Positions 1,480-22,309 of a stretch of 32,000 nt of DNA are shown one piece after another (the first letter of the stretch is position 1; the number at the start of each line of letters is the position of its first letter). The notes beneath the pieces are model-generated. The model did no database searches and had not been told where the DNA came from. It saw nothing but the letters and a program-made list of their open reading frames with translations. The DNA lies in contig CP178758.1 of NCBI GenBank assembly GCA_047651235.1, positions 3,630,001 through 3,662,000 on the forward strand. The letters run 5' to 3'. Source of the DNA: Candidatus Electrothrix yaqonensis (GTDB taxonomy: Bacteria > Desulfobacterota > Desulfobulbia > Desulfobulbales > Desulfobulbaceae). Both the position numbers and the translations under genes were made by a program.

Positions 1480-1697
1480 ATTTTCCTGCAGCCCGACCGG
1501 ACCTGCGGTATTGGAAAAATTTGAAATTATGGGAGAGCGGTACACTTGTCAACCACCCTGCAGGACGACACATCTTACTCTATAAAGCGGCAAATCCGGA
1601 AGTTATTTTCTTCACGTTTCCGTTTTCCTTATCTGAATTTTTTGCTAACTTAAAAAGTTATCTCAGTGCATCGACTCGAAAATTGAGGAAAGCAGAT

Positions 1698-3047
1698 ATG
1701 GGAGCGCTGTCCAGGGCAAAAAAAGAGAAATATACCTGCTATCAACAACAGCTGCAAAGCCGATGTGAGCAGCAGCACGAATTACTGCGGCGACTGCAGA
1801 GAGATCACGCCATTGTTACTGATCCTGCCGTCAAATTCGAGCGGGAGCAACAGATTGAAGCTGCCCGGAGCGAATGTAAGCAGATCAGGCATGACCTGAG
1901 CCTGCTGGAAGATGCGCTGCGGACTGGTGATGACAGCAGAGTGCCTGCGCGATATCAACGTAAGCCCAAGGCTGAAAGCCCAGCCCGGCAGAACCTGCTG
2001 ACTCTGCTGCAGGGGGTCAAATCCGCCTGGATTGAGGGCGTGCTGAAACAATCCCTGCATAACGAGGTACTGATCGAACTGCGCAAAACCCAGGAGGACG
2101 ATGCCGTCGATCGGCTGGAGCAGCCCCTGAACCTCAGCCTGGATAAGCCTGATGCGTCAGAAGAGACCATACTGCTTGATGAGGATATTCAGGAAACTTA
2201 TGAAGAGGCGGGAGGTACTCTGCTGATTCTCGGCGCACCGGGTGCCGGCAAAACCATTTCCCTACTCGATTTAACCCGCCGTCTGGCCAATGATGCTGTG
2301 TTTGATTCCGACCAGCCCATTCCGGTGGTCTTCAACCTTTCTTCATATACAGATAAACGGCAATCGCTGGCAGACTGGCTGGTGGATGAGCTGTGGGCCA
2401 AATACCGCATTCCCACCAAAATAGGGCGAAAGTGGATTGAAGATACGGAGCGGCGACCGCTTGTCCTGATGCTGGATGGTCTGGATGAGGTGGCGGAAGA
2501 TCTCCGTCCGGCCTGTGTGCAGGCTGTGAATTCCTATCGGGAGCAATATGCCCTGCGCGGCATTGTGGTGGCCTGCCGTCATCGGGAATACCGGGAGATT
2601 TCGGGCAAGCTCAAACTGGAGCAGGCCCTGTGTGTTCAACCGCTGACAGACCGGCAGGTTGAAGACTACCTGACCGGTGGCGGTGAGGAATTAGCCGGGT
2701 TGCACGCGGCCCTGCCTGCGGATGAGGGATTCCGGGAGCTGGCCCGTTCTCCCCTGATTCTGAGTATGATGTGCCTGGCCTACCGGGATCAGCCGGTTGA
2801 AACGATTCTTCAGGATGTGGCCGGGACAGCCGAGACCCGGCAGCCCAAGCTCTTTGCTGCCTATGTGCAGAGCATGTTCCGGCGGCCACGCAGCGGGGTT
2901 GAATACGAAGAGGAAAAGACCCGCCGCTGGCTGACCTTTTTGGCGTACAATATGCAGAAGCATGGACAGACCATCTTTCAGATAGAAAACCTTCAGCCGA
3001 GCTGGCTGCTGACAAAAGGTGGGTATAGCTGGAGCAACATAATTTGA
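1698..3047 (+). CDS. NACHT-family STAND NTPase with a coiled-coil-like N-terminus; appears C-terminally truncated or split
   Basis: Walker A LILGAPGAGKT and Walker B LVLMLDGLDEV with NACHT-type spacing, followed by winged-helix-like sequence. The start is placed at ATG 1698 (GAGGA 6-7 nt upstream) rather than the tracked 1521, which overlaps murD. The ORF ends right after the motif IENLQPSWLL, with no sensor or repeat domain. Confidence 0.8.
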   Translation: MGALSRAKKEKYTCYQQQLQSRCEQQHELLRRLQRDHAIVTDPAVKFEREQQIEAARSECKQIRHDLSLLEDALRTGDDSRVPARYQRKPKAESPARQNLLTLLQGVKSAWIEGVLKQSLHNEVLIELRKTQEDDAVDRLEQPLNLSLDKPDASEETILLDEDIQETYEEAGGTLLILGAPGAGKTISLLDLTRRLANDAVFDSDQPIPVVFNLSSYTDKRQSLADWLVDELWAKYRIPTKIGRKWIEDTERRPLVLMLDGLDEVAEDLRPACVQAVNSYREQYALRGIVVACRHREYREISGKLKLEQALCVQPLTDRQVEDYLTGGGEELAGLHAALPADEGFRELARSPLILSMMCLAYRDQPVETILQDVAGTAETRQPKLFAAYVQSMFRRPRSGVEYEEEKTRRWLTFLAYNMQKHGQTIFQIENLQPSWLLTKGGYSWSNII

Positions 3048-3542: not shown

Positions 3543-4040
3543 TCCAAGACTTTTAGTAGACTCTCATTTATGAGGCCTTATAGAAAATCATCGTACAACG
3601 TACATGACTTGAAAGTTCACCTGATTTGGATAACAAAATATCGTTACAAAGTGTTAAGTAAAGATATAAGTATTCGAATCAGAGAGATAATACGCCGAAT
3701 ATGTGATTCGAAAGATATTCAAATTATCAAAGGGAATATCAGTCAGGATCATGTCCATATCTATGTGTCATATCCTCCCAAAATATCCGTGAGTGAAATG
3801 GTGCGATTTTTCAAGGGTCGCTCTTCAAAAAAGATTCAGGAAGAATTTCCTCAACTGTCCAGAAGATACTGGGGAAAACATTTTTGGGGTATTGGCTGCG
3901 TTGCTTTGAGTTCCGGACACGTTACTGATGAAATGATACGGAATTATATTGAAAATCACAGAAATGACCCAAATCATAATAATGACGATTTTAAGATAGA
4001 ATAACGACTTTCAGTCGTTACACACTGACTTGAGTCAGCG
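3530..4040 (+). mobile_element. IS200/IS605-family insertion sequence (tnpA only)
   Basis: A Y1 HUH transposase gene is flanked by subterminal hairpins that share a GACT..AGTC core: GGACTttAGTCC (3534-3545), AACGACTttcAGTCGTT (4003-4019) and CTGACTtgAGTCAG (4025-4038). The element is AT-rich relative to its neighbours. Confidence 0.8.
3570..4004 (+). CDS. tnpA: IS200/IS605 family transposase TnpA (Y1 HUH)
   Basis: 144 aa. Contains the HUH motif (DHVHIYV) and a C-terminal catalytic Tyr region (MIRNYIENH), plus the typical LIWITKYRYKVL N-terminus. Confidence 0.92.
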   Translation: MRPYRKSSYNVHDLKVHLIWITKYRYKVLSKDISIRIREIIRRICDSKDIQIIKGNISQDHVHIYVSYPPKISVSEMVRFFKGRSSKKIQEEFPQLSRRYWGKHFWGIGCVALSSGHVTDEMIRNYIENHRNDPNHNNDDFKIE

Positions 4041-7384: not shown

Positions 7385-7710
7385 TTACTGTCGCCAGCGA
7401 CTGATGAACCCTCCACTTTCTGCAGAAATACCTGCAGTTCAGGTGAACTGGATTGAGCTGAACCTGAACGCTGCAGCGTGATAGCGGCATCACCCTCCCA
7501 CACCATTCCCAATTCTGACCGAACAGAATCGTCCTGCGCATAAGTGCGTCCAGCTTTTTCTACAAAGAGCTACAACCGGTATTTTGGCTGCAGGCACCCT
7601 CATGAAGCGCATGTTTGGGCGCCAGTAAATCTTCTTATAAAAAATTAAATATTAAATAGAGAACATACCCCTTCCGTCTAATATTATTTTCGATTCAGAG
7701 TATTTTTTTC

Positions 7711-7739
7711 TTGACGCCGTATTTAATATTTTATATCTT
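7711..7739 (+). promoter_or_regulatory. Sigma70-like promoter with an AT-rich UP-like element
   Basis: TTGACG, 17 nt, TATCTT. It is preceded by AAAAAATTAAATATTAAATA and conserved in copy 2. This is a sequence prediction only. Confidence 0.4.
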
Positions 7740-7820
7740 AAGATAAAGAGAAGCTATATCGGTCATTCATTATCCGGCTGCAGCAGCTCAATTTACGAAC
7801 ATAAAAAACTACATAATTCT

Positions 7821-7994
7821 ATGGCAGCGCTTATTCAGTAATAAGTAGGCACCGTGCTTTCCGGTCAGAAACGGAAAGCTGAATAAAGCCACAACCGTCG
7901 CGAGGCGGTGTCGGAAAACTACGGGTCTCCAGAGAGGAGACAGCCGGGTTACCTGCTTTTTCCATTTCACTTTTATACCGGGAGGTAAGTTATG
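7821..7994 (+). promoter_or_regulatory. Conserved structured 5' leader (candidate cis-regulatory RNA or riboswitch), copy 1
   Basis: By my reading it is 100% identical to 12965..13138. Hairpins: CTTATT/AATAAG; GCTTTCCG-GTCAGAAA-CGGAAAGC (7856-7879); CCGTC-GCGA-GGCGG (7895-7908, GNRA loop); GTCTCC-AGAGA-GGAGAC (7925-7941). These are followed by AGCCGGGTTACC and then GGGAGG-N6-ATG (7992). Confidence 0.45.
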
Positions 7995-8247
7995 AAATCT
8001 CCAAAAACAGTATCCCGCCACATTATCTGCCCCCCTTCAAGCTGTACCGGCAGATTTTTCCCTTTATTTTTTAAAAAAAGGAATTGTAGTTTCGCCGATT
8101 CGTTGAGCACCCGCTGCTGCGGATCAGCATAACTATACTTTTCTATACTTTTTGATCGTTTGTTTTTCTGAACAAAAAACTGTGCCTGTAACTGTTATCT
8201 GCACAACCCGACAATAGCTATCCTTATTAACAAGGAGGAGAGATCGA

Positions 8248-11200
8248 ATGAAAAAAAATACATTAACCGCATTATGCCTGGCATCATTGATGCTTACCGC
8301 ATCTGCTGCCCAGGCTCAAGAGACAGCGGATACCGCGAGCTGTGAGACAGCATATGCCTTTGGCAGCAGGGCATTGAGTGAAATTCCCGACCTCAAAAAT
8401 GCACGATGGGGATGGGAAATTATCCTGAACGGAAACGATGCATTAGTTACATCGATTTATGCCGGTGCCGGAGGGGAAGATACCACAAAAGGAGCCTATA
8501 TAGGCGATCTTCGGATTGACAGAAATGACGATCTGGTCACCCTGCAGCTCGATATACTGGAGGGAATATCTCTCAGCGAAACGCATATTTATGTAGGAAC
8601 AGAGGATGTCCCCACAACAGCAAATGGAGGATATGCAAGCCTTACGCAGCAGATAGGAAGACTCGATTCATACGGCAACGGCCTGTATAAAGTTCAACTG
8701 AATGACGAGACCCTCAATGTCGATAAGCTGTATGTTGTTGTTCATCTTAACGCGTGCAAAGGCGGCGATGATCCAAACACAAACACGGAATGCGGTGCCG
8801 ACAGCCCGTGGAAAGGACCGTGGGACAATGCTGTAGAATACAAATCAGGTGATGTTGTTGGATATGAAGGCAGCAGCTATGTCAACGTCTGCTGCGAGGA
8901 GACACCAAGCATAGCAGGCATAGCACCTACTGCCGACTTGTTCGATCCTTTTACTGAGGAAGGTTGCTGGAAACTCGTAGCTGAGAAAGGCGAGCAGGGT
9001 CCTGAAGGCCCCGAAGGTCCGCAGGGTGAAACCGGTCTGACTGGCGATACAGGTCCGCAGGGTCCGATTGGTCCGGTAGGCCCGCAGGGTGATCAGGGTG
9101 AAGTTGGTCCGCAGGGTCCGATTGGTCCGGTAGGTCCGCAGGGTGAAACCGGTCTGACTGGCGATACAGGTCCGCAGGGTCCGATTGGTCCGGTAGGCCC
9201 GCAGGGTGATCAGGGTGAAGTTGGTCCGCAGGGTCCGATTGGTCCGGTAGGTCCGCAGGGTGAAACCGGTCTGACTGGCGATACAGGTCCGCAGGGTCCG
9301 ATTGGTCCGGTAGGTCCGCAGGGTGAAACCGGTCTGACTGGCGATACAGGTCCGCAGGGTCCGATTGGTCCGGTAGGCCCGCAGGGTGATCAGGGTGAAG
9401 TTGGTCCGCAGGGTCCGATTGGTCCGGTAGGTCCGCAGGGTGATCAGGGTGAAGTTGGTCCGCAGGGTCCGATTGGTCCGGTAGGTCCGCAGGGTGAAAC
9501 CGGTCTGACTGGCGATACAGGTCCGCAGGGTCCGATTGGTCCGGTAGGTCCGCAGGGTGAAACCGGTCTGACTGGCGATACAGGTCCGCAGGGTCCGATT
9601 GGTCCGGTAGGCCCGCAGGGTGATCAGGGTGAAGTTGGTCCGCAGGGTCCGATTGGTCCGGTAGGCCCGCAGGGTGAAACCGGTCTGACTGGCGATACAG
9701 GTCCGCAGGGTCCGATTGGTCCGGTAGGCCCGCAGGGTGATCAGGGTGAAGTTGGTCCGCAGGGTCCGATTGGTCCGGTAGGTCCGCAGGGTGAAACCGG
9801 TCTGACTGGCGATACAGGTCCGCAGGGTCCGATTGGTCCGGTAGGTCCGCAGGGTGAAACCGGTCTGACTGGCGATACAGGTCCGCAGGGTCCGATTGGT
9901 CCGGTAGGCCCGCAGGGTGATCAGGGTGAAGTTGGTCCGCAGGGTCCGATTGGTCCGGTAGGTCCGCAGGGTGAAACCGGTCTGACTGGCGATACAGGTC
10001 CGCAGGGTCCGATTGGTCCGGTAGGCCCGCAGGGTGATCAGGGTGAAGTTGGTCCGCAGGGTCCGATTGGTCCGGTAGGTCCGCAGGGTGAAACCGGTCT
10101 GACTGGCGATACAGGTCCGCAGGGTCCGATTGGTCCGGTAGGTCCGCAGGGTGAAACCGGTCTGACTGGCGATACAGGTCCGCAGGGTCCGATTGGTCCG
10201 GTAGGCCCGCAGGGTGAAACCGGTCTGACTGGCGATACAGGTCCGCAGGGTCCGATTGGTCCGGTAGGTCCGCAGGGTGAAACCGGTCTGACTGGCGATA
10301 CAGGTCCGCAGGGTCCGATTGGTCCGGTAGGCCCGCAGGGTGATCAGGGTGAAGTTGGTCCGCAGGGTCCGATTGGTCCGGTAGGTCCGCAGGGTGAAAC
10401 CGGTCTGACTGGCGATACAGGTCCGCAGGGTCCGATTGGTCCGGTAGGCCCGCAGGGTGATCAGGGTGAAGTTGGTCCGCAGGGTCCGATTGGTCCGGTA
10501 GGCCCGCAGGGTGAAACCGGTCTGACTGGCGATACAGGTCCGCAGGGTCCGATTGGTCCGGTAGGCCCGCAGGGTGATCAGGGTGAAGTTGGTCCGCAGG
10601 GTCCGATTGGTCCGGTAGGTCCGCAGGGTGAAACCGGTCTGACTGGCGATACAGGTCCGCAGGGTCCGATTGGTCCGGTAGGTCCGCAGGGTGAAACCGG
10701 TCTGACTGGCGATACAGGTCCGCAGGGTCCGATTGGTCCGGTAGGCCCGCAGGGTGATCAGGGTGAAGTTGGTCCGCAGGGTCCGATTGGTCCGGTAGGT
10801 CCGCAGGGTGAAACCGGTCTGACTGGCGATACAGGTCCGCAGGGTCCGATTGGTCCGGTAGGCCCGCAGGGTGATCAGGGTGAAGTTGGTCCGCAGGGTC
10901 CGATTGGTCCGGTAGGTCCGCAGGGTGAAACCGGTCTGACTGGCGATACAGGTCCGCAGGGTCCGATTGGTCCGGTAGGTCCGCAGGGTGAAACCGGTCT
11001 GACTGGCGATACAGGTCCGCAGGGTCCGATTGGTCCGGTAGGCCCGCAGGGTGAAACCGGTCTGACTGGCGATACAGGTCCGCAGGGTCCGATTGGTCCG
11101 GTAGGTCCGCAGGGTGAAACCGGTCTGACTGGCGATACAGGTCCGCAGGGTCCGATTGGTCCGGTAGGCCCGCAGGGTGATCAGGGTGAAGTTGGTCCGC

Positions 11201-12111
11201 AGGGTCCGATTGGTCCGGTAGGTCCGCAGGGTGAAACCGGTCTGACTGGCGATACAGGTCCGCAGGGTCCGATTGGTCCGGTAGGCCCGCAGGGTGATCA
11301 GGGTGAAGTTGGTCCGCAGGGTCCGATTGGTCCGGTAGGTCCGCAGGGTGAAACCGGTCTGACTGGCGATACAGGTCCGCAGGGTCCGATTGGTCCGGTA
11401 GGCCCGCAGGGTGATCAGGGTGAAGTTGGTCCGCAGGGTCCGATTGGTCCGGTAGGTCCGCAGGGTGAAACCGGTCTGACTGGCGATACAGGTCCGCAGG
11501 GTCCGATTGGTCCGGTAGGCCCGCAGGGTGATCAGGGTGAAGTTGGTCCGCAGGGTCCGATTGGTCCGGTAGGCCCGCAGGGTCCGAAAGGTGATACCGG
11601 CGAATACCCGTTAGGTCAGTGTGACTTCGGTCAGATTCTAACCGGTTTTAATTCCAACGGTCCAATCTGCGAAGACATACCGGTCAACCTGATTGGCGGC
11701 TGCGAAACAGCCTTCGCTCACGGTGATAGAACATTGAATTCCTTCCTTGATACAAACCGGTGGGGATGGGAGATCACTGTAAATCCAGGACAAACGAAGA
11801 CAGGTATCCCGATTTATGCCGGAGCGGGACAGAATGACACCAGCAAGGGAACCCAGGTAGGCGAACTGACTGTAGCCTACACAGGAAACACGGTAACCGT
11901 TACCTACACCATGACAGCAGATGAGATCATCATGAAGGAAACCCATCTGTATGTGGGTGAGGAAAGTGTCACAACTGCAGCACCTGGCCAGTACGGTCTG
12001 CAGGATGAAGGTTTGCTCAATGCAACCACTGATAGCTATACAGTAACTGTCAGCGGCACAAAGTCGGTCAAGGTCGTCGCTCATGCTGTAACCTGTACAA
12101 AAGCGGACTAA
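8248..12111 (+). CDS. Giant secreted collagen-like (Gly-X-Y) protein with the same Cys-bracketed globular domain at both ends
   Basis: 1287 aa. AAGGAGGAG lies upstream of the ATG. Signal peptide: [24 protein letters not shown]-terminal domain 8341-8757. A CBM5/12-like W..W..Y..GDVV.Y.GSSY segment follows. There are 873 uninterrupted G-X-Y residues (8989-11607), then a Cys knot [19 protein letters not shown], then the C-terminal domain 11701-12096. Confidence 0.9.
9025..11580 (+). repeat. In-frame tandem array of 43 units: 26 of 63 nt ([22 protein letters not shown]) and 17 of 54 nt ([19 protein letters not shown])
   Basis: All unit boundaries were checked against the sequence. The order is ABABAABBAABABAABABAAAABABABAABABAAAABABABAB. 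Units of one type are almost identical; the only variation seen is GGC/GGT at one Gly codon. Blocks 9790-10626 and 10627-11463 are an 837-bp duplicate pair. Confidence 0.95.
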
Positions 12112-12144
12112 CAGCGCAGACTGACGGTTAGGATTAAAGCGAAA

Positions 12145-12176
12145 GGAGCAGATCCGAAAGGGTCTGCTCCTTTTTT
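12145..12176 (+). terminator. Rho-independent terminator of collagen-like gene 1
   Basis: GGAGCAGATCC-GAAA-GGGTCTGCTCC followed by TTTTTT. Confidence 0.8.
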
Positions 12177-12178
12177 GG

Positions 12179-12345
12179 TTCCGGTAACTGCCTGCGGCAG
12201 CTTCGCTTTACTTTGACACTGAGAAGTATGTTCCGACCGCCGCCTGAATTTACAGCTTCAAGTAAAACTCAGTGCGGCGTATTTGATGAGATACTGCAGG
12301 TTGCTGCATTGGGTAAAGAAGATAATATGTGATGGAGCCAGAAGG
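12179..12345 (+). repeat. Downstream cassette module, copy 1
   Basis: Matches 16704..16882. Only 3 substitutions in the first ~148 nt (GTTCCGGTAACTGCCTGCGGCAGC...GGGTAAAGAAGAT); identity decays after that. Confidence 0.9.
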
Positions 12346-12360
12346 GAGGAAATTACTCAG

Positions 12361-12453
12361 CTGATGTTACGCACGCAAATAAAAGATCAGTAAGTTACGA
12401 GACACCCAAAACGTGGAATCTGCCGATTTTGCGTTTCGGCTGCGTAACATCAG
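12361..12453. repeat. MITE-like or hairpin element with 13-bp perfect terminal inverted repeats
   Basis: CTGATGTTACGCA (12361-12373) pairs with TGCGTAACATCAG (12441-12453). It shares the GTTACGCA core with the neighbouring element. Confidence 0.6.
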
Positions 12454-12516
12454 TTACAGAGTTAAAAAAGTATAGCTTCCGAAATCCGGTTACCACAACA
12501 AATCTAAGAAGCTGAG

Positions 12517-12631
12517 GGAGTTACGCAGTTGAGAATAAGAAACTCAAGTGTTACAATAGGTTCCTCTTTTAGAGACACAAAACCGTCAGTTGAACAAAAT
12601 CAACGGGTTGTAGATCTAACTGCGTAACTCC
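12517..12631. repeat. MITE-like element with 14-bp perfect terminal inverted repeats
   Basis: GGAGTTACGCAGTT (12517-12530) pairs with AACTGCGTAACTCC (12618-12631). The internal segment 12575-12611 recurs, inverted, at 18647-18673. Confidence 0.65.
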
Positions 12632-12853
12632 TAAAGCTGTTTGAAAAACATGCTTCTAACAATACAGTTTCCGGGATAGATGTTGCAACCGGTATTTTGA
12701 CTGCAGGCAGCCTTATGGACCGTATGGTTGAGCATCAGTAAATCTTCTGTATTTTGCCAAGGTTACGTATCCTGAATATATAAAAAATTAAATATTAAAT
12801 AGAGAACATACCCCTTCCGTCTAATATTATTTTCGATTCAGAGTATTTTTTTC

Positions 12854-12882
12854 TTGACGCCGTATATAATATTTTATACTTT
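12854..12882 (+). promoter_or_regulatory. Sigma70-like promoter, copy 2
   Basis: TTGACG, 17 nt, TACTTT, with the same UP-like AT tract as copy 1. Confidence 0.35.
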
Positions 12883-12964
12883 TAAGATAAAGAGAAGCTG
12901 TATCGGTCATTCATTATCCGGCTGCAGCAGCTCAATTTACGAACATAGAAAACTACATAACTCT

Positions 12965-13138
12965 ATGGCAGCGCTTATTCAGTAATAAGTAGGCACCGTG
13001 CTTTCCGGTCAGAAACGGAAAGCTGAATAAAGCCACAACCGTCGCGAGGCGGTGTCGGAAAACTACGGGTCTCCAGAGAGGAGACAGCCGGGTTACCTGC
13101 TTTTTCCATTTCACTTTTATACCGGGAGGTAAGTTATG
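12965..13138 (+). promoter_or_regulatory. Conserved structured 5' leader, copy 2
   Basis: Identical to 7821..7994 and ends at the same SD-ATG (13136). Downstream sequence diverges after the codons MKSP. Confidence 0.45.
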
Positions 13139-13558
13139 AAATCCCCACCAGCAGTATTCAACCGTAGTATCCCTTCAGTCGTACCCGTAGGTCTTCCGAC
13201 CGCAGACCGCAGTTCCTGTCTTCTTCCTGTTCAGTCAGGAAAGAAATCTCAGTCTGATTATCAGGACAATGCCGAGTACCGGCACGTCCGACTCAGCCTA
13301 TACTGTTCTTCGGTATAATCTGAGCTTTTACAGAGGCTGAGCTGCAGCTTTAATTTAAATTTAATTCATTAACGAACAGGAGAGTACGACCCCGGAAAAA
13401 CGCGATGTATTCCGGTGACACTCCGTATTTTTCAGCTTTGTTTTTAAAAAGAACAGACCCTTAATCCGTCTGAATAGGATCATACCGACTTTTTGATCTG
13501 TACAGATAAACTAATCCCCTGCCTCAGTAAGAGGCAAATAAAAAAAAGAGGAATGATA

Positions 13559-16500
13559 ATGAAGAGAAAAAACGTGTTGACAGCGTTATGTCTGGCATCT
13601 CTGATGCTTACCGCGTCTGCTGTCCAAGCAACAGGCCCCACTGAGCAGGAACTGCAAGCTTGCAATGAAGCAAAGAATATTGAAGATTGCAAGGAGCATG
13701 TGAGGGAGCTGGCGAAGGCTCGGGAAGAGAAGTTGAAGCAGAAAGAGCTGGACCGGGAAGAGAAGCTGAAACAGAAAGAGCTGGACCGGGAAGAAAAGCT
13801 GAAACAGAAAGAGCTGGACCGGGAAGAAAAGCTGAAACAGAAAGAGCTGGACCGGGAAGAGAAACTGAAGCAGAAAGAGCAGGAGTGGGTGAAGAAGAAG
13901 GAGGAGGAGTGCGAGAATCCTAAGGAGAAACCTAAGGATAAGCCTAAGAACCCCCCTAATGACAACCCTGGTCAGAAGCCTACGGCCGGGAAGGATTGCC
14001 AGACGGCGTATGCCTTTGGAGACCGGACAGATGCCAATCCTAATGATGCGGCAGTATATCAATCCGCTGACGGAGAGCTTGATACTTATCTGGGAGATCA
14101 GGTGCTTAACGAGTTGCCGGGTCTCAAGCCGAATCGGTGGGGATGGATGCTTTCCATCTTTAATGGGGATGAGTTTACTGTACCGATCTATGCCGGTGCC
14201 GGAAAAAACGATATTGCAAGGGGCACCCATGTTGGAAATCTGACAGTTATCTACAAGGAAGGTCTGTTAACCGTATCTTTTGGTATGTTTGAAGGATTTT
14301 CTTTGAATGGAAGCCATTTGTACGTAAATAACGGAATAAATGACGGAGAGGAGCATGTGCCCACCTCCGCACCGGGCAGATATGATGACTACAGTATAGG
14401 AAACCGGACATTCGATTCCGCTACAGATACATATACCGTGGATCTTGGAACAGCAGACTTTCCATCTTCTTTATATATTGCTGTTCATAGCGTAGTTTGC
14501 GAAGGAGAACAAGGTGGAGGACAAGGCGGAGGAGGAGACTGCACTATATGCCCGGCAGGGCCGAAAGGTGAGAAAGGTGATCCGGGTATCCAAGGCCTCG
14601 AAGGTCCGCAGGGTCCGATTGGCCTGACTGGTCCGGAAGGCCCGGAAGGCCCGCAGGGTATCCAGGGTGAAACAGGCCCGGAAGGCCCCGCAGGTCCGCA
14701 GGGTCCGATTGGCCTGACTGGTCCGATAGGCCCCGAAGGCCCGCAGGGTATCCAGGGTGAAACAGGCCCGGAAGGTCCCGCAGGTCCGATAGGTCCGGAA
14801 GGCCCGCAGGGTATCCAGGGTGAAACAGGCCCGGAAGGCCCCGCAGGTCCGATAGGTCCCGAAGGTCCGAAAGGCAAAAAGGGCAAAAAAGGTGATCCGG
14901 GCATCCAAGGTCCTGAAGGCCCGACTGGTCCGGAAGGCCCGCAGGGTATCCAGGGTGAAACAGGCCCGGAAGGTCCCGCAGGTCCGATAGGCCCGGAAGG
15001 CCCGCAGGGTATCCAGGGTGAAACAGGCCCGGAAGGCCCCGCAGGTCCGATAGGTCCCGAAGGTCCGAAAGGCAAAAAGGGCAAAAAAGGTGATCCGGGC
15101 ATCCAAGGTCCTGAAGGCCCGACTGGTCCGGAAGGCCCGCAGGGTATCCAGGGTGAAACAGGCCCGGAAGGTCCCGCAGGTCCGATAGGCCCGGAAGGCC
15201 CGCAGGGTATCCAGGGTGAAACAGGCCCGGAAGGCCCCGCAGGTCCGATAGGTCCCGAAGGTCCGAAAGGCAAAAAGGGCAAAAAAGGTGATCCGGGCAT
15301 CCAAGGTCCTGAAGGCCCGACTGGTCCGGAAGGCCCGCAGGGTATTCAGGGTGAAACAGGCCCGGAAGGCCCCGCAGGTCCTCAGGGTCCGATTGGCCTG
15401 ACTGGTCCGGAAGGTCCCGAAGGTCCGCAGGGTCCGATTGGCCTGACCGGTCCGGAAGGCCCCGCAGGTCCGCAGGGTCCGATTGGCCTGACTGGTCCGG
15501 AAGGTCCCGAAGGTCCTCAGGGTCCGATTGGCCTGACTGGTCCGGAAGGCCCCGCAGGTCCTCAGGGTCCGATTGGCCTGACTGGTCCGGAAGGTCCCGA
15601 AGGTCCGCAGGGTCCGATTGGCCTGACCGGTCCGGAAGGCCCCGCAGGTCCGCAGGGTCCGATTGGCCTGACTGGTCCGGAAGGTCCCGAAGGTCCGCAG
15701 GGTCCGATTGGCCTGACTGGTCCGGAAGGTCCCGAAGGTCCGCAGGGTCCGATTGGCCTGACTGGTCCGGAAGGTCCCGAAGGTCCGATTGGCCTGACTG
15801 GTCCGGAAGGTCCCGAAGGTCCGCAGGGCATCCAGGGTGAAAAGGGCGACAAAGGTGATCCTGGCCAGGTAGTAATTAATGTCGGTAACTGTCCAGAAAA
15901 TCAGGTTATGACGGGTATTACCGTCGTGGATGGAGAATTAAGAGTAATCTGCGAGGAGTTCTGCAACTTCACCTGCAGCAGCCAGCCTGTCTGCGGCAAT
16001 GGCATTAAGGAGACAGGTGAAGAGTGTGACGACGGAAACATTTTGAATGGAGACGGTTGTTCCTCTACCTGCACCGATGAGCCAACAGGTGATATTCAGC
16101 CCGGAGACTTCCGGACACAGACGCAGGGCGGATGGGGCCAGGACGAATGCAATGGCGGCAATCCTGCATGCTACCGCAACGATAACTTCGACACATGTTT
16201 CAGCAACGGCCTGATCGTCGGTGACCCGGATGGTCCTGACAGCGACACTTCGTACGCACTCGAACTGACATCATCGGCAGCGGTAGCAGGTTCCCTGCCA
16301 GCTGGCGGTTCCTCCAAGGCACTTACTGCGGACTTCACTGATCCCGGTAACTTGAACCAGATAACAGGTGTATTGGGCGGACAGCTCGTAGCCGCCACGC
16401 TCAGCGTGACGTTCGACAGGTGCGACACCGATTTCGGAGCCAGCAATGAAGAACTCGGCAACTTGGTCTATGCTGCGAGTGCATGTATTAATATGACGGT

Positions 16501-16645
16501 TGATCAGGTGCTTGCTGAAGCGAATACGATCATCAGCGGTGGCGCAAGTACCTTCACCCCAAGCCAGATCAGTGATTGTCTGGCCACCCTGAATGAGTGC
16601 TTCGTGGACGGAACTCAGACGTGCAATAATTTTGTACTGCCGTAA
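13559..16645 (+). CDS. Secreted multidomain collagen-like protein (charged repeats, Cys-bracketed domain, 438-aa G-X-Y region, Cys-rich repeat, C-terminal domain)
   Basis: The start is set at ATG 13559 (AGAGGA 6 nt upstream) because this gives [24 protein letters not shown], parallel to gene 1. The tracked ORF begins at 13493. Layout: [11 protein letters not shown] x5, a PK-rich linker, the domain at 13997-14500, G-X-Y at 14558-15871, then [27 protein letters not shown], then about 185 aa of C-terminal domain. Confidence 0.9.
13721..13885 (+). repeat. Five tandem 33-nt in-frame repeats encoding [11 protein letters not shown]
   Basis: Units begin at 13721, 13754, 13787, 13820 and 13853. The last is degenerate ([11 protein letters not shown]). 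Confidence 0.9.
14558..15871 (+). repeat. Collagen-like G-X-Y coding repeats with 198-bp and 90-bp higher-order periods
   Basis: There are 146 uninterrupted triplets. GGTCCGAAAGGCAAAAAGGGCAAAAAAGGT ([10 protein letters not shown]) recurs at 14864, 15062 and 15260, a 198-bp period. [30 protein letters not shown] (90 nt) repeats from about 15379 to 15780. Confidence 0.9.
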
Positions 16646-16669
16646 AAAGAACCTTAGTTAAGGAGAAAA

Positions 16670-16703
16670 GGGGCGGACTCGAAAGGGTCTGCCCCCTTTT
16701 TTT
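16670..16703 (+). terminator. Rho-independent terminator of collagen-like gene 2
   Basis: GGGGCGGAC-TCGAAAGG-GTCTGCCCC followed by CTTTTTTT. Same design as the terminator at 12145-12176. Confidence 0.8.
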
Positions 16704-16882
16704 GTTCCGGTAACTGCCTGCGGCAGCTTCGTTTTACTTTGACACTGAGAAGTATGTTCCGACCGCCGCCTGAATTTACAGCTTCAAGTAAAACTCAGAG
16801 CGGCGTATTTGATGAGATACTGCAGGTTGCTGCATTGGGTAAAGAAGATGATGTGTTGATGTATGAGCCGGAGGGAAGTAAC
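16704..16882 (+). repeat. Downstream cassette module, copy 2
   Basis: Matches 12179..12345. Confidence 0.9.
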
Positions 16883-16887
16883 ACTTG

Positions 16888-17247
16888 TCAGTTATCATCC
16901 TCTGTTTGCCCCTCCTGCAGTGCGCTTTTTGTTTTTTCCCGCTCTGAGGAATCATGCCCCTCCGGCGCATCGTCGGAGGCCGTCTGCTCTTCCATAGCAG
17001 AATCCACGGAATCCGATTCTATCGGCTCCGCCACGCCTGCAGAAACACCTGCAGATTGTTTTGCCAAGGCGCTTTTCACATCCTTTGACAGGGCCTCGTC
17101 ACCCAGCATATTCTGCAGCAGTCTGTCGTCAAGAATAGTCTGCTGGTGAGACTGGGAAAAATTGCGCAGCCTCCAGATAAGCCACAGCAGCGATATAACC
17201 AGAAGTCCTACCAGACCAAGAAAAATTATCCAGATAAGATCACCCAT
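16888..17247 (-). CDS. Small single-pass membrane protein with an acidic, low-complexity tail; last gene of the mla operon
   Basis: 119 aa. It has an N-terminal TM helix (IWIIFLGLVGLLVISLLWLIW) and a D/E/S-rich C-terminus. It starts 44 nt downstream of mlaC on the same strand. The overlapping plus-strand ORF 16739..17149 is Ser/Cys-rich and looks like an antisense artefact. Confidence 0.55.
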   Translation of the reverse strand: MGDLIWIIFLGLVGLLVISLLWLIWRLRNFSQSHQQTILDDRLLQNMLGDEALSKDVKSALAKQSAGVSAGVAEPIESDSVDSAMEEQTASDDAPEGHDSSEREKTKSALQEGQTEDDN

Positions 17248-17291
17248 ACGTCCGTCTGTTGTATGTCTGCAGTCCGGGGTTCGACCGGGCT

Positions 17292-17930
17292 TTATTCGTC
17301 CTCTTCCCCGGCCTCCAGTTTTTTGATCTTTTCCTCCAGCAGGGAAATCAGACCGGGAAATTGTTTGTCACGCAGTACGCTGCGGATTTGTTCCATATAG
17401 TTACGGACCAGACTGATACCCTCCACCACAATGTCATAGGCCATCCATTTATCCTTTCTCAGGATCATAATATAGGAGACCGGAATGCTTTTGTCGTCTC
17501 CGACAAACAGGCTCTTGACCTCGGCCCTGTCCTTCCGTATCCGCTGGTCTGTAAACTCAATCTTTTTCTCCAGGAAATCATCAATCTGGCCGATGTAGAC
17601 ATACTGCAGCAGCTTGGTGAACAAAGCGATAAACTGCTCCTGCTGCTCTTTATTCAGGGTTTGCCACTGTTTGCCCATAACCCTTTTGGACATCTCATGG
17701 AAATCAAAATGGTCCGAAACCATTTTGACGATATGGTCACATTGCTCGGCAACCGGCCGTTTCCGGAATTCCTTATCCTTCAGCTGGGTAACGACTTTTT
17801 CTACAACCGGCTTCAGCTGTTCTGTCGGATCCGGAGGCGCTGCCGCCGCATTACGGATCCCGTCAGGGACAACAGGCAGAGCAAGAAAGAAAAAAAGAAA
17901 AAAAACTATATTGTACCGAGAGATAAGCAT
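17292..17930 (-). CDS. mlaC: Periplasmic phospholipid-binding protein MlaC (Ttg2D/toluene-tolerance family)
   Basis: 212 aa with a signal peptide. Family-typical segments: FDFHEMSKRVMGKQW, QQEQFIALFTKLL and MAYDIVVEGISLVRNY. It sits within the mla operon. Confidence 0.85.
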   Translation of the reverse strand: MLISRYNIVFFLFFFLALPVVPDGIRNAAAAPPDPTEQLKPVVEKVVTQLKDKEFRKRPVAEQCDHIVKMVSDHFDFHEMSKRVMGKQWQTLNKEQQEQFIALFTKLLQYVYIGQIDDFLEKKIEFTDQRIRKDRAEVKSLFVGDDKSIPVSYIMILRKDKWMAYDIVVEGISLVRNYMEQIRSVLRDKQFPGLISLLEEKIKKLEAGEEDE

Positions 17931-18051
17931 GGTTTCACCTTTTGTTGCTTTGTTGCCAGCGGCACCGCAGACCGCCTTTGTTATTTATTCGTCTTCTGCA
18001 GGAATTAAGGAGCATTCATAAATTGCTCATAGCTATGCGGTACCGTTAATA

Positions 18052-18534
18052 TTACTCATAACGTCGGAAGACGAATTCGCTGAAGATACCGGGAGAAAAT
18101 CCTGATATTCTTTTTTTATTTAATGTAGCATGTGCATTTTTCATTACATATTGATTGATGTGTACATCAGAAAATTTATCACCATCACATGGTGGATTTA
18201 TTTCTATGTATTCGCTTTGGAATTTTCCAATACTGTACATTATTTTAACAGTTGTATTGTCCGACCCGACAACAGATATAAGAATTTTATTTTTGAATCT
18301 TCGCCATCGAATTCTATCTGTATCGCTGTTGTACCATTTCGATATACCGCTTGGATCAGAAACAAAAACATATAATTTATTTTTTGGAGAAAAATATTTA
18401 AATGACGCAAAATGATATCCTCCGATATTAGCGTCAGCGTATCTATAAAGTTCGGCACGGGATTGTGCAAAGCTAAAGGTTGGAACTGAAAAAACATATA
18501 ATGTTATGATTATTGTAATGATTCTCTTGAACAT
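18052..18534 (-). CDS. AT-rich secreted hypothetical protein inserted in the mla operon
   Basis: 160 aa. Signal peptide MFKRIITIIITLYVFSVPTFSFAQS, with GGAGG upstream of the ATG. It is visibly much more AT-rich than mlaA and mlaC on either side. No family recognised. Confidence 0.6.
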   Translation of the reverse strand: MFKRIITIIITLYVFSVPTFSFAQSRAELYRYADANIGGYHFASFKYFSPKNKLYVFVSDPSGISKWYNSDTDRIRWRRFKNKILISVVGSDNTTVKIMYSIGKFQSEYIEINPPCDGDKFSDVHINQYVMKNAHATLNKKRISGFSPGIFSEFVFRRYE

Positions 18535-18646
18535 GTTTTTTTTCCTCCTTTCATCATTAAAAGATATTTAGCCCATATCTGGAATCAATACTGAAGGCTA
18601 TGTTAATATTTGCGAATTCAATATTAATTTCAGGTGTATTGGATTC

Positions 18647-18740
18647 ACAACACGTTGATTTTGTTCAACTGACAGTTTATGCCTATAAAAAATTAAGCTA
18701 TTATAATAATCGAGCTTCTTGTTTTTAACTGCGTAACTCC
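18647..18740. repeat. Degenerate third copy of the GTTACGCA-type MITE-like element
   Basis: AACTGCGTAACTCC (18727-18740) is identical to 12618-12631. Segment 18647-18673 is the reverse complement of 12575-12611 with one or two mismatches. The element abuts the mlaA stop codon. Confidence 0.55.
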
Positions 18741-19606
18741 TATTCTGATGCCGAAGCACCCCACATCTGCTCACGATGCTGAAAATAACCGTCCCGGACA
18801 GCCACATAGGGATCAAAACTTACATCCTTCATCTTTTCATATTCACCGAGATGCAGCGACAGATTGTTGACTTCCTTGCCGATATAAATCCCTGTTGCCT
18901 CTTCCCATCCGGCAGCCCAGAAGTAATATGGTGTCACGGCAAATCTATCGACAGTTATACCGGCCGCATCCCGCAGTGTCGAGGGCCCCATGACAGGAAT
19001 GACAAGATAAATACCGTCCTCCACGCCCCAATTCGCCAAGGTCTGGCAGAAGGTTGCCTCCAGGGGGGCAAACCCCATCGTGGCTGCGGGGTCACCGAAT
19101 CCTGCAATCCCGCCGGTCGTGTTGAGCAGAAATCTGGTCAGCACAGTGCCGGCATCGGAAAATCTGGCCTGCAGCAGCGTATTGAGCAAACGCATCGGCT
19201 CCTGCAGATTATGAAAAAAATTTCCTACAGCGCCCCGGATATCCGACGGAACAACTTCACTGTATCCGGTGGCAAGCGGATTCATGACCCATGTGAAGGC
19301 ATAATCATTAAAGGTAAAAACAGCCCGATTAATCTCTTCAAACGGATCATCTACTGCATAGACTTCAGGGCCCGCTTCTTCATCATAAAATGCATCGTCA
19401 AGAAAATCTATTTCTTCTGCATCCCCATCTTCTTCATCATCCGCATAAGCCGTGTTGTCAGAGGGGGGCAACTCTATTTTTTCTTCTCTTCCTTTTTCCT
19501 CTTCCTCCGCATAGACCGAGCTGCTCAAGGGTGACAACAAGCCGTAGCCGAAAGCAGAACAAAAACACAGACTGACAAGGAGCACTACATTTTTTTTTCT
19601 CATCAT
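18740..19606 (-). CDS. mlaA: Outer-membrane lipoprotein MlaA (VacJ family)
   Basis: VacJ-family core: DPFEEINRAVFTFNDYAFTWVMNPLATGY and, further on, GFGDPAATMGF. The start is set at MMRKKNVVLLVSLCFC (19606) rather than the tracked 19672. It has an unusual acidic E/D-rich insert after the signal sequence. Confidence 0.85.
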   Translation of the reverse strand: MMRKKNVVLLVSLCFCSAFGYGLLSPLSSSVYAEEEEKGREEKIELPPSDNTAYADDEEDGDAEEIDFLDDAFYDEEAGPEVYAVDDPFEEINRAVFTFNDYAFTWVMNPLATGYSEVVPSDIRGAVGNFFHNLQEPMRLLNTLLQARFSDAGTVLTRFLLNTTGGIAGFGDPAATMGFAPLEATFCQTLANWGVEDGIYLVIPVMGPSTLRDAAGITVDRFAVTPYYFWAAGWEEATGIYIGKEVNNLSLHLGEYEKMKDVSFDPYVAVRDGYFQHREQMWGASASE

Positions 19607-19704
19607 GCAATCAGGCCGGCTCGGCGCGCCCCCTCCATTTAGAGCCCCGCAGCTGCGGGAAACAATGAACAACGATGAACAAAAAATCAGGAAGTATGAA
19701 AAAA

Positions 19705-20154
19705 CTATTTTACCCCGCCGAAAGCAAATTTGGAAATCAGCGACTCCAGATCAACTGCCGACTCGGTATCCACAAGCAGATCTCCGGCCTGATAATACTC
19801 CTCATCACCGCCGGGGGTAAGCTGAATGATCTTGTCGCCGATAATCCCCTGGGATTTCACCGACGCCATAGAATCCTTTGCCAACTTCACCTTGTTATCC
19901 AAGGTCATGGTCACCACGGCCCTGTCATATTCATTCAGCTGTATTGCGGTGACCGACCCCACAGTCACCCCGGCTATCTGCACCTCAGCACCATTTTTTA
20001 TCCCGGAAATATTTTCAAATTCCGCATTCAGGGCATATGTACTGCCTGCATTCAACCAGGAAACTTCACCGAGCTGCAACGCCAGCCAGCCGAAGGCGGC
20101 GAAACCGAGAACAAGAAAAATACCGACTGCAATTTCCAAACGGGAATTATTCAC
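19705..20154 (-). CDS. mlaD: MCE-domain protein MlaD
   Basis: 149 aa. An N-terminal TM anchor (IAVGIFLVLGFAAFGWLAL) is followed by an MCE domain (GIKNGAEVQIAGVTVGSV). Confidence 0.88.
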   Translation of the reverse strand: MNNSRLEIAVGIFLVLGFAAFGWLALQLGEVSWLNAGSTYALNAEFENISGIKNGAEVQIAGVTVGSVTAIQLNEYDRAVVTMTLDNKVKLAKDSMASVKSQGIIGDKIIQLTPGGDEEYYQAGDLLVDTESAVDLESLISKFAFGGVK

Positions 20155-20239
20155 GGGATACTCCTCAGGCTACAAATTCAAGTTACAAATTTAAATATCC
20201 GGATATTATCGGCTGATCAGGCTTCTCCGGCATCAGCTT

Positions 20240-21052
20240 TCACAGCAGATTTCCGAGCGTCATTTCGGCAAATTCACGGATATGCGGTTTTTCCGAGTCC
20301 CTGATCTGCGCAGCATCGGTAAACAGGTCCACCTCACCTTTGTTGAGCAGGACAATCTGATCAGCCAGCTCAAAAACTTTCGGAATATCATGACTGACAA
20401 TGATCGCCGTATATCCTAACCGCTGCTGCGTCCGCCTGAACAGATCATAAATTTCCTGAGTCATGACCGGATCAAGGCCAGTGGTCGGCTCGTCAAAAAG
20501 AACGATCTCCGGGTCAAGCTGCAAAGCCCTGGCCAGTCCGACCCGTTTTTTCATGCCGCCGCTGAGCTGAGCCGGAAATTTGTTTTCATGACCGGTGAGT
20601 TCCAGCGTTTTCAGAGTGGCGGCAATCTGCTCCTGAATCTCCTGTTCCGTCAGCTTGGTCCGCTCCCGGAGCGGCAGGGCGATATTTTCAAACACAGAAA
20701 GCGAGTCAAACAGCGCTGCTCCCTGAAAAAGCACACCGAACTTGGTGCGCAGTTCACGGAGTTTTCTGCGGCCCATTCGGGTGACATCCTGTCCGTCAAC
20801 CAGTATCCGACCGCTGTCCGGTTTCAGCAGACCGAGAATCAGCTTCAGATTGACGCTTTTTCCCTGTCCGCTGCCGCCGGCAATCACCGTGGTTTTTCCA
20901 CGGGGCACGGAATAACTGATCCCGTGCAGCACCCTGTGCCGCTGGGTTCGTTCGCCGAATGTCTTGATAACGTCAATAAATTCAACTGCCGGTGTGTCCG
21001 GCTGATCTGTCTGACTTTCGCCTGCCTGTTTCTTTTCCTGTTCAGCAGCCAT
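20240..21052 (-). CDS. mlaF: ABC transporter ATP-binding protein MlaF
   Basis: 270 aa with Walker A GGSGQGKS, signature LSGGMKKRV and Walker [12 protein letters not shown]. It carries an N-terminal extension of about 20 aa. Confidence 0.9.
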
Positions 21053-21071
21053 GCTTCCCTACCTTTCTTTC

Positions 21072-21884
21072 CTACAAGAGTACTGCTGTCAGCAGGTAAT
21101 CAACAATTAAGACTGAGATCGACGACAGAACCACGGCCTGGGTGGTCACTCTGCTGACGCTTTCAGCTCCGAACCCTGCGCCGCGAATCTGCAGGACAAA
21201 ATAGCCGCGTCCGGTACTGATCCAGACAACAAGAAAGGCAAAGACAAAGGATTTGATCAGGCCGATCTGCAGATCATGATTGGTTACACTGGTCATCATG
21301 CCGTTGAAAAAAGAACCGGAACTCACCTCCATCATTTTGACAGCGGTAAGATATCCGCCGTAAATACCGACAATATCAAATATTGCTGTAAGCAGTGGGA
21401 TAGAAAGAACTGCAGCGATAAATTTAGGGGTGATCAGATAACGGAAAGGATCGACTGCCATGCACTCAAGGGCATCGATCTGTTCACTGATCCGCATGAT
21501 GCCGATCTCGGCGCACATAGCAGAACCGGCCCGGCCTGCGACCATAAGGGCGGTCAGAATCGGCCCAAGTTCCAGAATCAGGCTCAGGGCGATACCTGAA
21601 CCCAACATGCTTTCGGCTCCGAATCTCTTCAGCGTGTACACGCCCTGCAGCCCGAGCACCATTCCTGAGGCCAAGGCAGTGAAAAAAATCACGGCTATTG
21701 ATCCGGCGCCGATAAAACGAAGCTGCTTGAGCAGCTCTTTTCCCCGAAACGGCCGTTTGAACATGCCTGCCAGGGCGGCCAGAAAAAATATGCCCATCCT
21801 GCCCAGATCAGTCAGCAGATACAGGCAACGATCACCGAGATAAAAAAACGGCTTGCCCCAAAATATAGAGTTTGATTTCTGCAA
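21072..21884 (-). CDS. mlaE: ABC transporter permease MlaE
   Basis: 270 aa, polytopic. MlaE/Ttg2B-type motifs are present (EIGIMRISEQIDALECMAVDP). It lies 19 nt upstream of mlaF. Confidence 0.9.
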   Translation of the reverse strand: MQKSNSIFWGKPFFYLGDRCLYLLTDLGRMGIFFLAALAGMFKRPFRGKELLKQLRFIGAGSIAVIFFTALASGMVLGLQGVYTLKRFGAESMLGSGIALSLILELGPILTALMVAGRAGSAMCAEIGIMRISEQIDALECMAVDPFRYLITPKFIAAVLSIPLLTAIFDIVGIYGGYLTAVKMMEVSSGSFFNGMMTSVTNHDLQIGLIKSFVFAFLVVWISTGRGYFVLQIRGAGFGAESVSRVTTQAVVLSSISVLIVDYLLTAVLL

Positions 21885-22262
21885 GAGACTGATTGTTCGG
21901 TTGGATTGCAGATAAAAGTCCGTGCTGCACAGACAGCAGCGACGAGGCTCAATTTATTTTTTCGTTTAAACAGCTATTATACTCCCTGTTCAGTCAGTTT
22001 GAGAATACCATAAAAGAAAAAAAAACATAAACATTTTATTGCCGGAATCTTCACAGCCGTTCCGTGTTGCTCATTTCTACACCGACCTTGCCCTGAGTTC
22101 TGCGTGAGGAAAATGAGGACTATGAAACAGAGAGAGAAAAGAGGATAACAGGCTGTCAGATACGTCACAATATTTTTTTTTGCATCGGGATCGATATTTT
22201 TTGCCCCTCAAAAGAACCAATATGCCATCTGCAACAGGCGGGATGAACAGGTGCATCAGAAC

Positions 22263-22309
22263 AAAAAAACCGGCTCCTCCTTAACAGAAAGGAAGAGCCG
22301 GCCAAAAAA
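22263..22309. terminator. Bidirectional-looking terminator hairpin
   Basis: CCGGCTCCTCC-N10-GGAAGAGCCGG, flanked by A7 on the left and A6 on the right, which gives a T-run on the minus strand. Confidence 0.45.

Follow-up and report, generated by a model that had tools for sequence, protein, structure and literature searches.

Near-identical flanks with a predicted c-di-GMP-I riboswitch leader around two diverged collagen-like genes of a cable bacterium

In a stretch of 32,000 nucleotides (nt) from Candidatus (Ca.) Electrothrix yaqonensis (contig CP178758.1, positions 3,630,001 to 3,662,000), hereafter the window, whose own numbering is used throughout, two genes for very large collagen-like secreted proteins lie one behind the other, each between the same upstream block and the same downstream block. 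The whole is probably best explained as two old paralogous collagen-like cassettes, standing behind the same cyclic diguanylate (c-di-GMP) riboswitch leader with the fossil start codon of another gene, whose flanks were made 98% identical by recent homologous recombination. The identity of the flanks does not reflect selection or a mobile-cassette mechanism. The window pair belongs to known kinds of element and process and is no new class of genetic element; its most original details are the fossil leader open reading frame (ORF) and possible control at a distance.

Results

Identity mosaic of the flanks

A window-wide repeat search followed by pairwise and global alignments found exactly two copies each of the upstream and the downstream block in the window, around the ORFs at 8248-12111 and 13559-16645. 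The blocks, coordinates and mismatch counts of an initial annotation of this DNA were thereby reproduced. Each high-identity tract is bounded by homology of lower identity, with 84%, 98.4% and ~60% in succession upstream and 86%, 97.9% and ~55% downstream. On the upstream side, an outer shoulder on the plus strand (7573-7635 versus 12686-12748) differs at 10 of its 63 positions and is followed, in copy 2 only, by an insertion of 30 nt (12749-12778), so that shoulder and insertion together occupy 12686-12778. The upstream core then runs from 7636 to 8003 in copy 1 (U1) and from 12779 to 13147 in copy 2 (U2), with 6 mismatches and 1 gap over 368 nt, and contains a run of 182 nt (7818-7999) with no difference at all. 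Past this core the lower identity extends across 37 nt, and then no alignment is possible. On the downstream side, an intrinsic terminator precedes the downstream core, which the alignment places at 12177-12322 (D1) and 16703-16848 (D2), both plus strand, with 3 mismatches over 146 nt. The similarity after D2 is lost by ~16881, just short of the stop codon (16888) of a convergent 119-residue gene of the mla cluster. Between the flanks, blastn alignments were confined to two parts, the sequence for the signal peptide (75.6% over 90 nt) and that for the collagen repeats (~65%). The discordance between flanks and bodies that the initial annotation pointed out is real, the two cores being 98.4% and 97.9% identical versus 39-45% for the globular domain that the two proteins share.

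Two anciently diverged collagen-like genes

Both genes are on the plus strand. Gene 1 (8248-12111) encodes 1287 residues with a signal peptide, a globular domain, a segment resembling carbohydrate-binding module (CBM) family 5/12, about 890 residues of Gly-X-Y repeats and a second copy of the globular domain. Gene 2 (13559-16645) encodes 1028 residues with a signal peptide, a coiled-coil segment made of 33-nt repeats, the globular domain, about 450 residues of Gly-X-Y, a Cys-rich DUF4215-like segment and a C-terminal domain. The Pfam Collagen model matches with E values of 3e-129 (gene 1) and 3e-63 (gene 2), the signal peptides are similar, and both proteins are predicted to be secreted. The bodies thus differ in content, as had been claimed; they are nevertheless not unrelated, sharing the signal peptide, one globular domain and the collagen repeats. 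A look-up with the gene 2 protein returned no record. The repeats of gene 2 (13688-13918) are six tandem units of 33 nt that encode heptad-like units of D/E plus 10 residues between the signal peptide and the globular domain, and they are not present in its closest relative, P0001.

The globular domain (CETAYAFG...NRWGW...IYAGAG...HLYVG) occurs twice in gene 1 (8335-8769 and 11695-12108) and once in gene 2 (13991-14512). No Pfam model covers it; a representative library clustered at 50% holds 1791 relatives, and the domain often makes up the C-terminal half of secreted proteins of about 330 residues. Its AlphaFold model is beta-rich, with a predicted local distance difference test (pLDDT) score of 73 and a predicted template-modelling (pTM) score of 0.73. 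A Foldseek search of this model against the PDB gave no match at E<=0.001, and the best weak ones were adhesin domains of the MSCRAMM (microbial surface component recognizing adhesive matrix molecules) type with TM ~0.25. A sequence search gave weak matches to chains named 'Adhesin A' and 'Antifreeze protein', which we take to be PA14-like lectin domains of an ice-binding adhesin; the resemblance to MSCRAMM or lectin-type adhesin domains is weak and not significant.

A gene of Ca. Electronema halotolerans (locus L013) with the same architecture shares 57% identity with gene 1 in the N-terminal domain, and for the domain of gene 2 the nearest match is P0001 of another organism (71-73%), whereas the two neighbours reach 39% with each other in these domains. 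Because each is closer to a gene of another genome (57% and 71%) than to its neighbour (39%), homology shows genes 1 and 2 to be anciently diverged paralogues, as far as can be read from identity matrices used in place of a formal tree. In L013 (chromosome OW818675.1, 2908-6402), the collagen array of the gene 1 orthologue is interrupted by transposase-like ORFs (IS630-like by sequence), and another transposase-like ORF (IS66-like by eye) lies upstream of it. No riboswitch was detectable within 480 nt of this orthologue.

A predicted c-di-GMP-I riboswitch in the upstream core

The initial annotation, which had offered recombination landing pads as one possible role of the flanks, did not recognize what the upstream module is. 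It appears to be a regulatory unit composed of a candidate promoter and a c-di-GMP-I riboswitch leader, not an anonymous landing pad. The Rfam covariance model of this riboswitch (RF01051, clan CL00126) matches both copies over its full length with 55 bits, compared to a gathering score of 35 (E 2.6e-8). The two aptamers, at 7878-7956 and 13022-13100 on the plus strand, are identical to each other and lie in sense orientation in the position of a 5' leader. In the predicted fold two hairpins form, the first with a GCGA tetraloop of the GNRA type, and the register of helix P1, GAAAGC:GCUUUU, matches the Rfam model.

The ligand contacts G20, A47 and C92 of the Vc2 riboswitch are named in PMC4744006. 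With the Vc2 column numbering inferred from the consensus sequences of variant models, the equivalent diagnostic columns of the window aptamers carry G, A and C. An A at position 20 would suggest cyclic GMP-AMP as the ligand, and the variant models carry U..U or G47. Because G, A and C occupy the three diagnostic columns, we read the window element as a predicted canonical c-di-GMP sensor. At relaxed thresholds the c-di-GMP-I-UAU variant model scores the window aptamers at 63.7 bits, under its threshold of 65.9 bits, and the c-di-GMP-I-GGC model gives 59.7-61.9 bits for the Electrothrix/Electronema loci L003, L004 and L005; the Electronema aptamers pass the GGC model. In all these cases the variant model gives a higher score than the parent model. 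Both variant-ligand classes were rejected since all aptamers have the canonical nucleotides in the three diagnostic positions. The aptamers of Electronema and Electrothrix would probably be labelled wrongly as GGC variants by automatic annotation.

The leader as a whole consists of the candidate promoter, about 130 nt of 5' RNA, the riboswitch and an expression platform able to hide a Shine-Dalgarno (SD) sequence, and U1 includes that SD sequence and the fossil start codon. The predicted transcription start is near 7746. The candidate sigma-70 promoter, TTGACG-17-TATCTT, lies at 7711-7739 on the plus strand (12854-12883 in U2) and holds two of the six U1/U2 mismatches (7723 and 7737) plus the 1-nt gap. 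Among relatives only 7839-8000 of U1 is kept: the best matches, L075 and L071, start at ~7839 and reach at most ~8020, with 75-91% identity. The promoter and 5' leader (7636-7838) have no counterpart in any related locus compared. A degenerate aptamer pattern matches on at least 120 metagenomic contigs, none of which shows similarity upstream of ~7839 or matches the downstream core. On metagenomic contigs of other organisms the same leader, in its aptamer and SD part (75-91% identity), precedes diverse secreted-protein genes. Two other contigs carry two nearby aptamers each, and these are 78-82% identical.

A riboswitch of this clan also occurs in Ca. Electrothrix aarhusensis, where it stands, together with an intrinsic terminator, directly before a collagen-like gene of 466 residues whose signal peptide and globular domain are the same as in genes 1 and 2. 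The combination of riboswitch and gene family is thus conserved, with different wiring. A literature search found no paper connecting cable bacteria with riboswitch control.

A fossil start codon behind the riboswitch

The SD sequence CCGGGAGG (7978-7985) and the ATG at 7992-7994 of copy 1 (plus strand; 13122-13129 and 13136-13138 in copy 2) are the same as those that start the real gene in Ca. Electronema (L004 and L005) and in L142, L084 and L133. In Ca. Electronema sp. JC and PJ, an aptamer 77-91% identical to that of the window is followed by the same ACCGGGAGGTATGTyATGAAA, and that ATG opens a gene for a secreted two-domain protein of 337 or 343 residues. This protein is a member of a large cable-bacteria family of two-domain secreted proteins of about 330 residues. 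In the window the ATG opens short ORFs on the plus strand: ORF 1 (7992-8132) has 46 codons and begins MKSPKTVSRH..., with only its first ~12 codons homologous to the ancestral gene, and ORF 2 (13136-13318) has 60 codons and begins MKSPPAVFNRSI. The start of ORF 2 matches MKSTATVFNRSLL of the intact gene P0163, whose contig (L142) has the same aptamer end, SD sequence and ATG. Because the same aptamer, SD sequence and ATG open intact genes in Electronema and in P0163, these homologies show the putative leader ORFs to be decayed 5' ends of the gene for the ~330-residue secreted protein. A look-up with the protein of fossil ORF 2 gave no record.

The initial annotation had seen the last 17 codons of a lost gene in the outer shoulder (7573-7635). 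This segment has no coding signature: the substitutions are spread 3/3/4 over the codon positions, 6 of the 17 residues differ, and no homology was found further upstream for its open frames. The true gene fossil sits at the other end of the module, at the start codon at 7992 and 13136.

The collagen-like genes themselves start 256 and 423 nt past the fossil start and have their own ribosome-binding sites, AAGGAGG and AAGAGG. Spacer 1 (8004-8247) is C-rich and G-poor in its 5' part (C/G up to 3.1), and its alignment with spacer 2 breaks off after ~37 nt. Comparison of the spacers with the leaders of related collagen-like genes found no homology until 10-20 nt before the start codons. In two metagenomic relatives, the riboswitch, SD sequence and ATG open an ORF of 4 codons (L075, 6190-6700) or of 74 codons (L050, minus strand, ~1520-1700), and the next sizeable gene lies 390-500 nt downstream, a layout as in the window. 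This riboswitch may thus have been separated from its original gene more than once.

A possible switch

The hairpin P0 (7856-7879, plus strand; 13000-13023 in copy 2), with arms GCUUUCCG and CGGAAAGC forming 8 base pairs, is conserved in 10 related leaders. Its 3' arm, GGAAAGC, doubles as the 5' strand of the aptamer helix P1, whose partner GCUUUUU is at 7955-7961, and its 5' arm, CUUUCCGG, can pair with the SD region. When a P1 of the Rfam type was forced in the fold, the helix between anti-SD and SD formed spontaneously at -45.0 kcal/mol, versus a minimum free energy of -55.0 kcal/mol. The alternative fold that sequesters the SD sequence is plausible in energy. Its anti-SD:SD helix is 92.5% paired over 10 relatives, with the best register at slide 0. 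Both fossil ORFs begin with C-rich, G-poor stretches.

From these elements we propose that binding of c-di-GMP would stabilize P1, whereupon P0 would open and free its anti-SD arm, and the SD sequence would be occluded. The fossil ORF would then go untranslated, which might affect the distal gene through polarity, for example by Rho-dependent termination in the C-rich leader. Such polarity is conceivable because the fossil ORFs start C-rich and G-poor. The direction of regulation is uncertain, and coupling to the distal collagen-like genes is conceivable.

Terminators, downstream core and the spacer between the cassettes

The intrinsic terminators T1 (12142-12176) and T2 (16667-16702), each a hairpin with a T-run on the plus strand, are 86% identical and differ by a compensatory stem change, GGAGCAG/CTGCTCC versus GGGGCGG/CTGCCCC. 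T2 also has a T-run on the minus strand and is possibly bidirectional. Homologous terminators follow related genes in L003 and L005. The downstream core behind them is non-coding: six-frame translation found no coding constraint, and an ORF of 34 codons, for which no record was found, has a non-synonymous difference and has lost its stop in copy 2. The core had no Rfam match at E<5 and no homologue in any related locus compared. It folds with a low z-score, with no covariation by which to judge the fold. Situated between the terminator and the stop of the convergent gene (16888), the trailing module resembles ordinary non-coding DNA that was carried along with the unit, and the 98% identity of the downstream core is explained by recency alone.

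The spacer between the cassettes (12346-12685, 335 nt) consists of two hairpin elements of ~100 and ~130 nt, whose terminal inverted repeats end in GTTACGCA cores. This motif occurs 5 times in the window versus 0.44 expected, and the fold of the spacer has z = -5. A further copy of the second element, inverted and partly truncated, lies at ~18640-18745 between a gene for 160 residues and mlaA. Because the same element recurs there, the spacer elements look like dispersed repeats of the MITE (miniature inverted-repeat transposable element) or REPIN (repetitive extragenic palindromic doublet forming a hairpin) kind, not attachment sites.

Locus and neighbourhood

The aconitase encoded beside the cassettes is 88-90% identical to aconitases of named Ca. 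Electrothrix and Electronema genomes, and by this gene the window, part of a contig of 3.74 Mb, is assigned to a cable bacterium of the Ca. Electrothrix/Electronema clade. In Ca. Electrothrix aestuarii (L144) and a JGI contig (L148), mlaEFDAC follows directly after the aconitase gene on the same strand. In the window the mla block (16888-22352) is inverted relative to these two, and both cassettes sit at one inversion junction, with the aconitase gene on one side and the block's 3' end on the other. The similarity of the closest available relative (L143, 93% aconitase identity) to the window ends at 7385, right past the aconitase terminator. This end of similarity and the mla inversion together identify the cassette pair, as judged by gene order, as lineage-specific and located on a rearrangement junction.

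Several other features were noted in the neighbourhood. A gene for an IS200-like Y1 transposase (3570-4004) lies just upstream of the aconitase gene, ~3.5 kb before cassette 1, and is adjoined by the inverted-repeat pairs 4045-4068/4598-4621 and 4491-4526/5201-5236, which have a common TTCTACTTTGG core. A gene for an NTPase of the NACHT/STAND type (1521-3047, called start TTG) overlaps the start of the divergent murD by ~25 nt. Just past the far end of the inverted mla block, two overlapping ORFs of 79 and 101 residues (22870-23383) correspond to annotated genes of a Logan contig with weak Pfam matches to DUF6290/DUF6364 and ParE_toxin, which suggests a putative toxin-antitoxin pair of the ParE type.

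Discussion

The near-identical cores are embedded in older homology of lower identity, which argues for recent homologous recombination between two old cassettes. Such recombination would have left the upstream (368 nt) and downstream (146 nt) cores nearly identical, either by conversion of each flank from its neighbour or by replacement of the interior of a duplicated unit, and its outcome would be that both genes are wired to one c-di-GMP input. The discordance between tracts and bodies points the same way, the tracts being near-identical within the genome and the gene bodies closer to genes of other genomes. Gene conversion or cassette exchange had been suggested in the initial annotation. 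Recombination is indeed the best explanation, given the near-identical cores inside lower-identity homology, core sequence that is mostly unconserved in relatives and bodies that are ancient paralogues; conversion and interior swap are not separated by these data. Deletion or amplification through the 368-nt direct repeats can also reasonably be inferred.

Could the flanks simply be old and constrained at every position? The 182 difference-free nt do cover P0, the aptamer, the SD sequence and the start codon, all of which are conserved in relatives. However, the relatives are 75-91% identical there, and an identical run of 182 nt has a chance of ~5e-9 at 10% divergence and of ~2e-19 at 21%, the pooled divergence of the homologous shoulders next to the cores. 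Moreover, the promoter and 5' leader segment (7636-7838) and the downstream core are conserved nowhere and yet are 97-98% identical between the copies. Constraint does not explain the identity because these two segments match no relative and paired aptamers elsewhere are only 78-82% identical; purifying selection alone after an old duplication has a very slim chance of being the cause. An assembly or polishing artefact, by which the assembler homogenized or duplicated the repeat copies, is very unlikely. Short-read polishing of repeats can erase differences, and collagen arrays of 3 kb are hard to assemble, but the copies keep 7 and 3 differences as well as distinct shoulders, spacers and bodies. 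In addition, the Logan short-read contigs L001 and L141 independently tie U1 and D2 to their unique neighbours, with bases specific to D2. In SRR31704081, one Logan contig joins U1 to the aconitase gene with 100% identity and ends at 7722, with the first U1/U2 difference lying 1 nt further on, and another joins D2 to the mla side with 1 mismatch in 6.7 kb and ends at 16704, 1 nt past a D1/D2 difference. These contigs behave as expected for a true two-copy repeat, and the artefact that the initial annotation had named as a possible refutation is an unlikely cause of the identity. The layout resembles a cassette array and inverted repeats abound in the DNA between the cassettes, as an integron- or shufflon-like system with the flanks as attachment sites of a site-specific recombinase would have it. 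Against such a system, the 20 window ORFs scanned with Pfam and the annotated genes of the L141 contig (16704-23418) include no integrase or invertase, and the IS200-like gene ~3.5 kb before cassette 1 is the only transposase. One flank consists of a promoter with a riboswitch leader and the other of plain non-coding DNA, the inverted repeats are those of the small dispersed element found again at ~18640-18745, and both copies have full expression signals, so that neither is silent. With no recombinase in these ORFs and genes and no attachment sites, an integron-like or invertible system was rejected as extremely improbable.

A swap of cargo is an alternative that we consider unlikely. It assumes that the unit was recently duplicated in tandem and that crossovers where the flanks meet the interior then put a different paralogue in place of one interior, which would make the flanks a reusable expression socket for collagen-like genes, or landing pad. 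The divergence is nearly equal on the two sides, as from one event, with 5 mismatches and 1 gap over the 186 nt of the 5' half of the upstream core (~2.7%) and 3 mismatches over 146 nt in the downstream core (~2.1%), and the latter is 98% identical although it is unconstrained. On its right the unit ends just at the stop codon of the adjacent gene, and the high-identity blocks end within older homology (fossil ORF and terminator), where crossovers with a diverged donor could resolve. The pair also lies at a lineage-specific rearrangement junction, and at a wider evolutionary scale one leader precedes many different secreted proteins. A simple recent duplication, however, fails to explain the outer shoulder, which with its 84% identity and 30-nt indel is inside the unit yet outside the young core, and the swap needs as many events as two flank conversions. 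In the public collections scanned no third flank copy, no other flank copy with different cargo and no donor locus was found; exact scans for the aptamer core (43 nt in genome contigs and 29 nt in metagenome contigs) gave no match, and the source species is absent from both collections. The near-equal divergence of 2.7% and 2.1% leans slightly toward a single event, and the 84% outer shoulder with its indel leans the opposite way.

Several observations weigh against recombination between old cassettes that share a working riboswitch leader, the reading that we prefer. The values of ~2.7% (upstream 5' half) and ~2.1% (downstream) fit one event at least as well as two conversions, and the downstream core is without known function, so that a reason for it to stay a substrate of conversion is not evident. 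The promoter candidate is a 9/12 consensus match and nothing more. A single pair of the anti-SD:SD helix covaries (C-G in 3 sequences, U-A in 5), which 124 of 500 shuffles also reached and which is not significant. The riboswitch could, moreover, be decoupled from the distant collagen-like genes. An idea that goes further, and that we regard as improbable, is that of a portable 'expression socket', in which the promoter-riboswitch-fossil-start block and the block past the terminator would serve cable bacteria to bring different collagen-like envelope or fibre proteins, through homologous recombination, under a single c-di-GMP signal. The riboswitch would then gate translation of a decayed leader ORF and thereby, at a distance, Rho-dependent read-through into the gene downstream.

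The locus offers a regulatory handle on two very large collagen-like secreted proteins, since both are predicted to respond to c-di-GMP via identical leaders. It would also be a natural example of a riboswitch leader that became detached from its original gene and was spread over non-orthologous genes by recombination. Two questions are raised by it, namely whether a translational riboswitch can control a gene several hundred nt away, and whether regulons grow by the copying of RNA switches.

Among known systems, the c-di-GMP-I (GEMM-I) riboswitches Vc2 and Vc1 of Vibrio cholerae (PMC4744006), Bc2 upstream of the collagen adhesion protein gene cap in Bacillus thuringiensis (PMC4933901) and the c-di-GMP riboswitches that control adhesins in Clostridioides difficile (PMC6200980) are the closest in kind. 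Like these riboswitches of surface-protein genes, the window aptamers score above the gathering score, contain the three ligand-contact nucleotides and lie, in the sense direction, in 5' leaders of secreted- or surface-protein genes. They differ in that the SD sequence and start codon behind them are the fossil of another gene, and the collagen-like genes, each with a ribosome-binding site of its own, begin only 256 and 423 nt further on. The platform is apparently sequestration of the SD sequence by an arm of a hairpin that precedes the aptamer; in Ca. Electrothrix aarhusensis its place is taken by an intrinsic terminator.

Concerted evolution or gene conversion between paralogues for surface proteins that keep their ends and diverge in the middle is known from babA and babB of Helicobacter pylori and from the sapA homologues of Campylobacter fetus, which share their 5' region. 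The window pair resembles them in its near-identical 5' and 3' ends, strongly diverged bodies, tracts bordered by older homology, and surface-exposed repetitive proteins. Unlike in those systems, the homogenized tracts of the window are wholly non-coding (promoter, riboswitch and DNA past the terminator), and both copies are equipped for expression, without an arrangement of silent donor and expression site and without signs of ongoing switching. Control of a distal gene by a leader ORF via Rho-dependent polarity is known from the Mg2+ leader of Salmonella mgtA with mgtL. The window has in common with it a long leader, a short ORF that is possibly gated by an RNA switch, and a C-rich, G-poor start of that ORF; its short ORFs are, however, decayed gene starts with unrelated sequences and not conserved leader peptides, and polarity is proposed for it. 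The tandem units with similar boundaries and different cargo also recall integron gene cassettes, but the ORFs and genes scanned include no integrase, there are no attC-type sites, and each unit of the window has its own promoter and boundaries that are regulatory or non-coding DNA.

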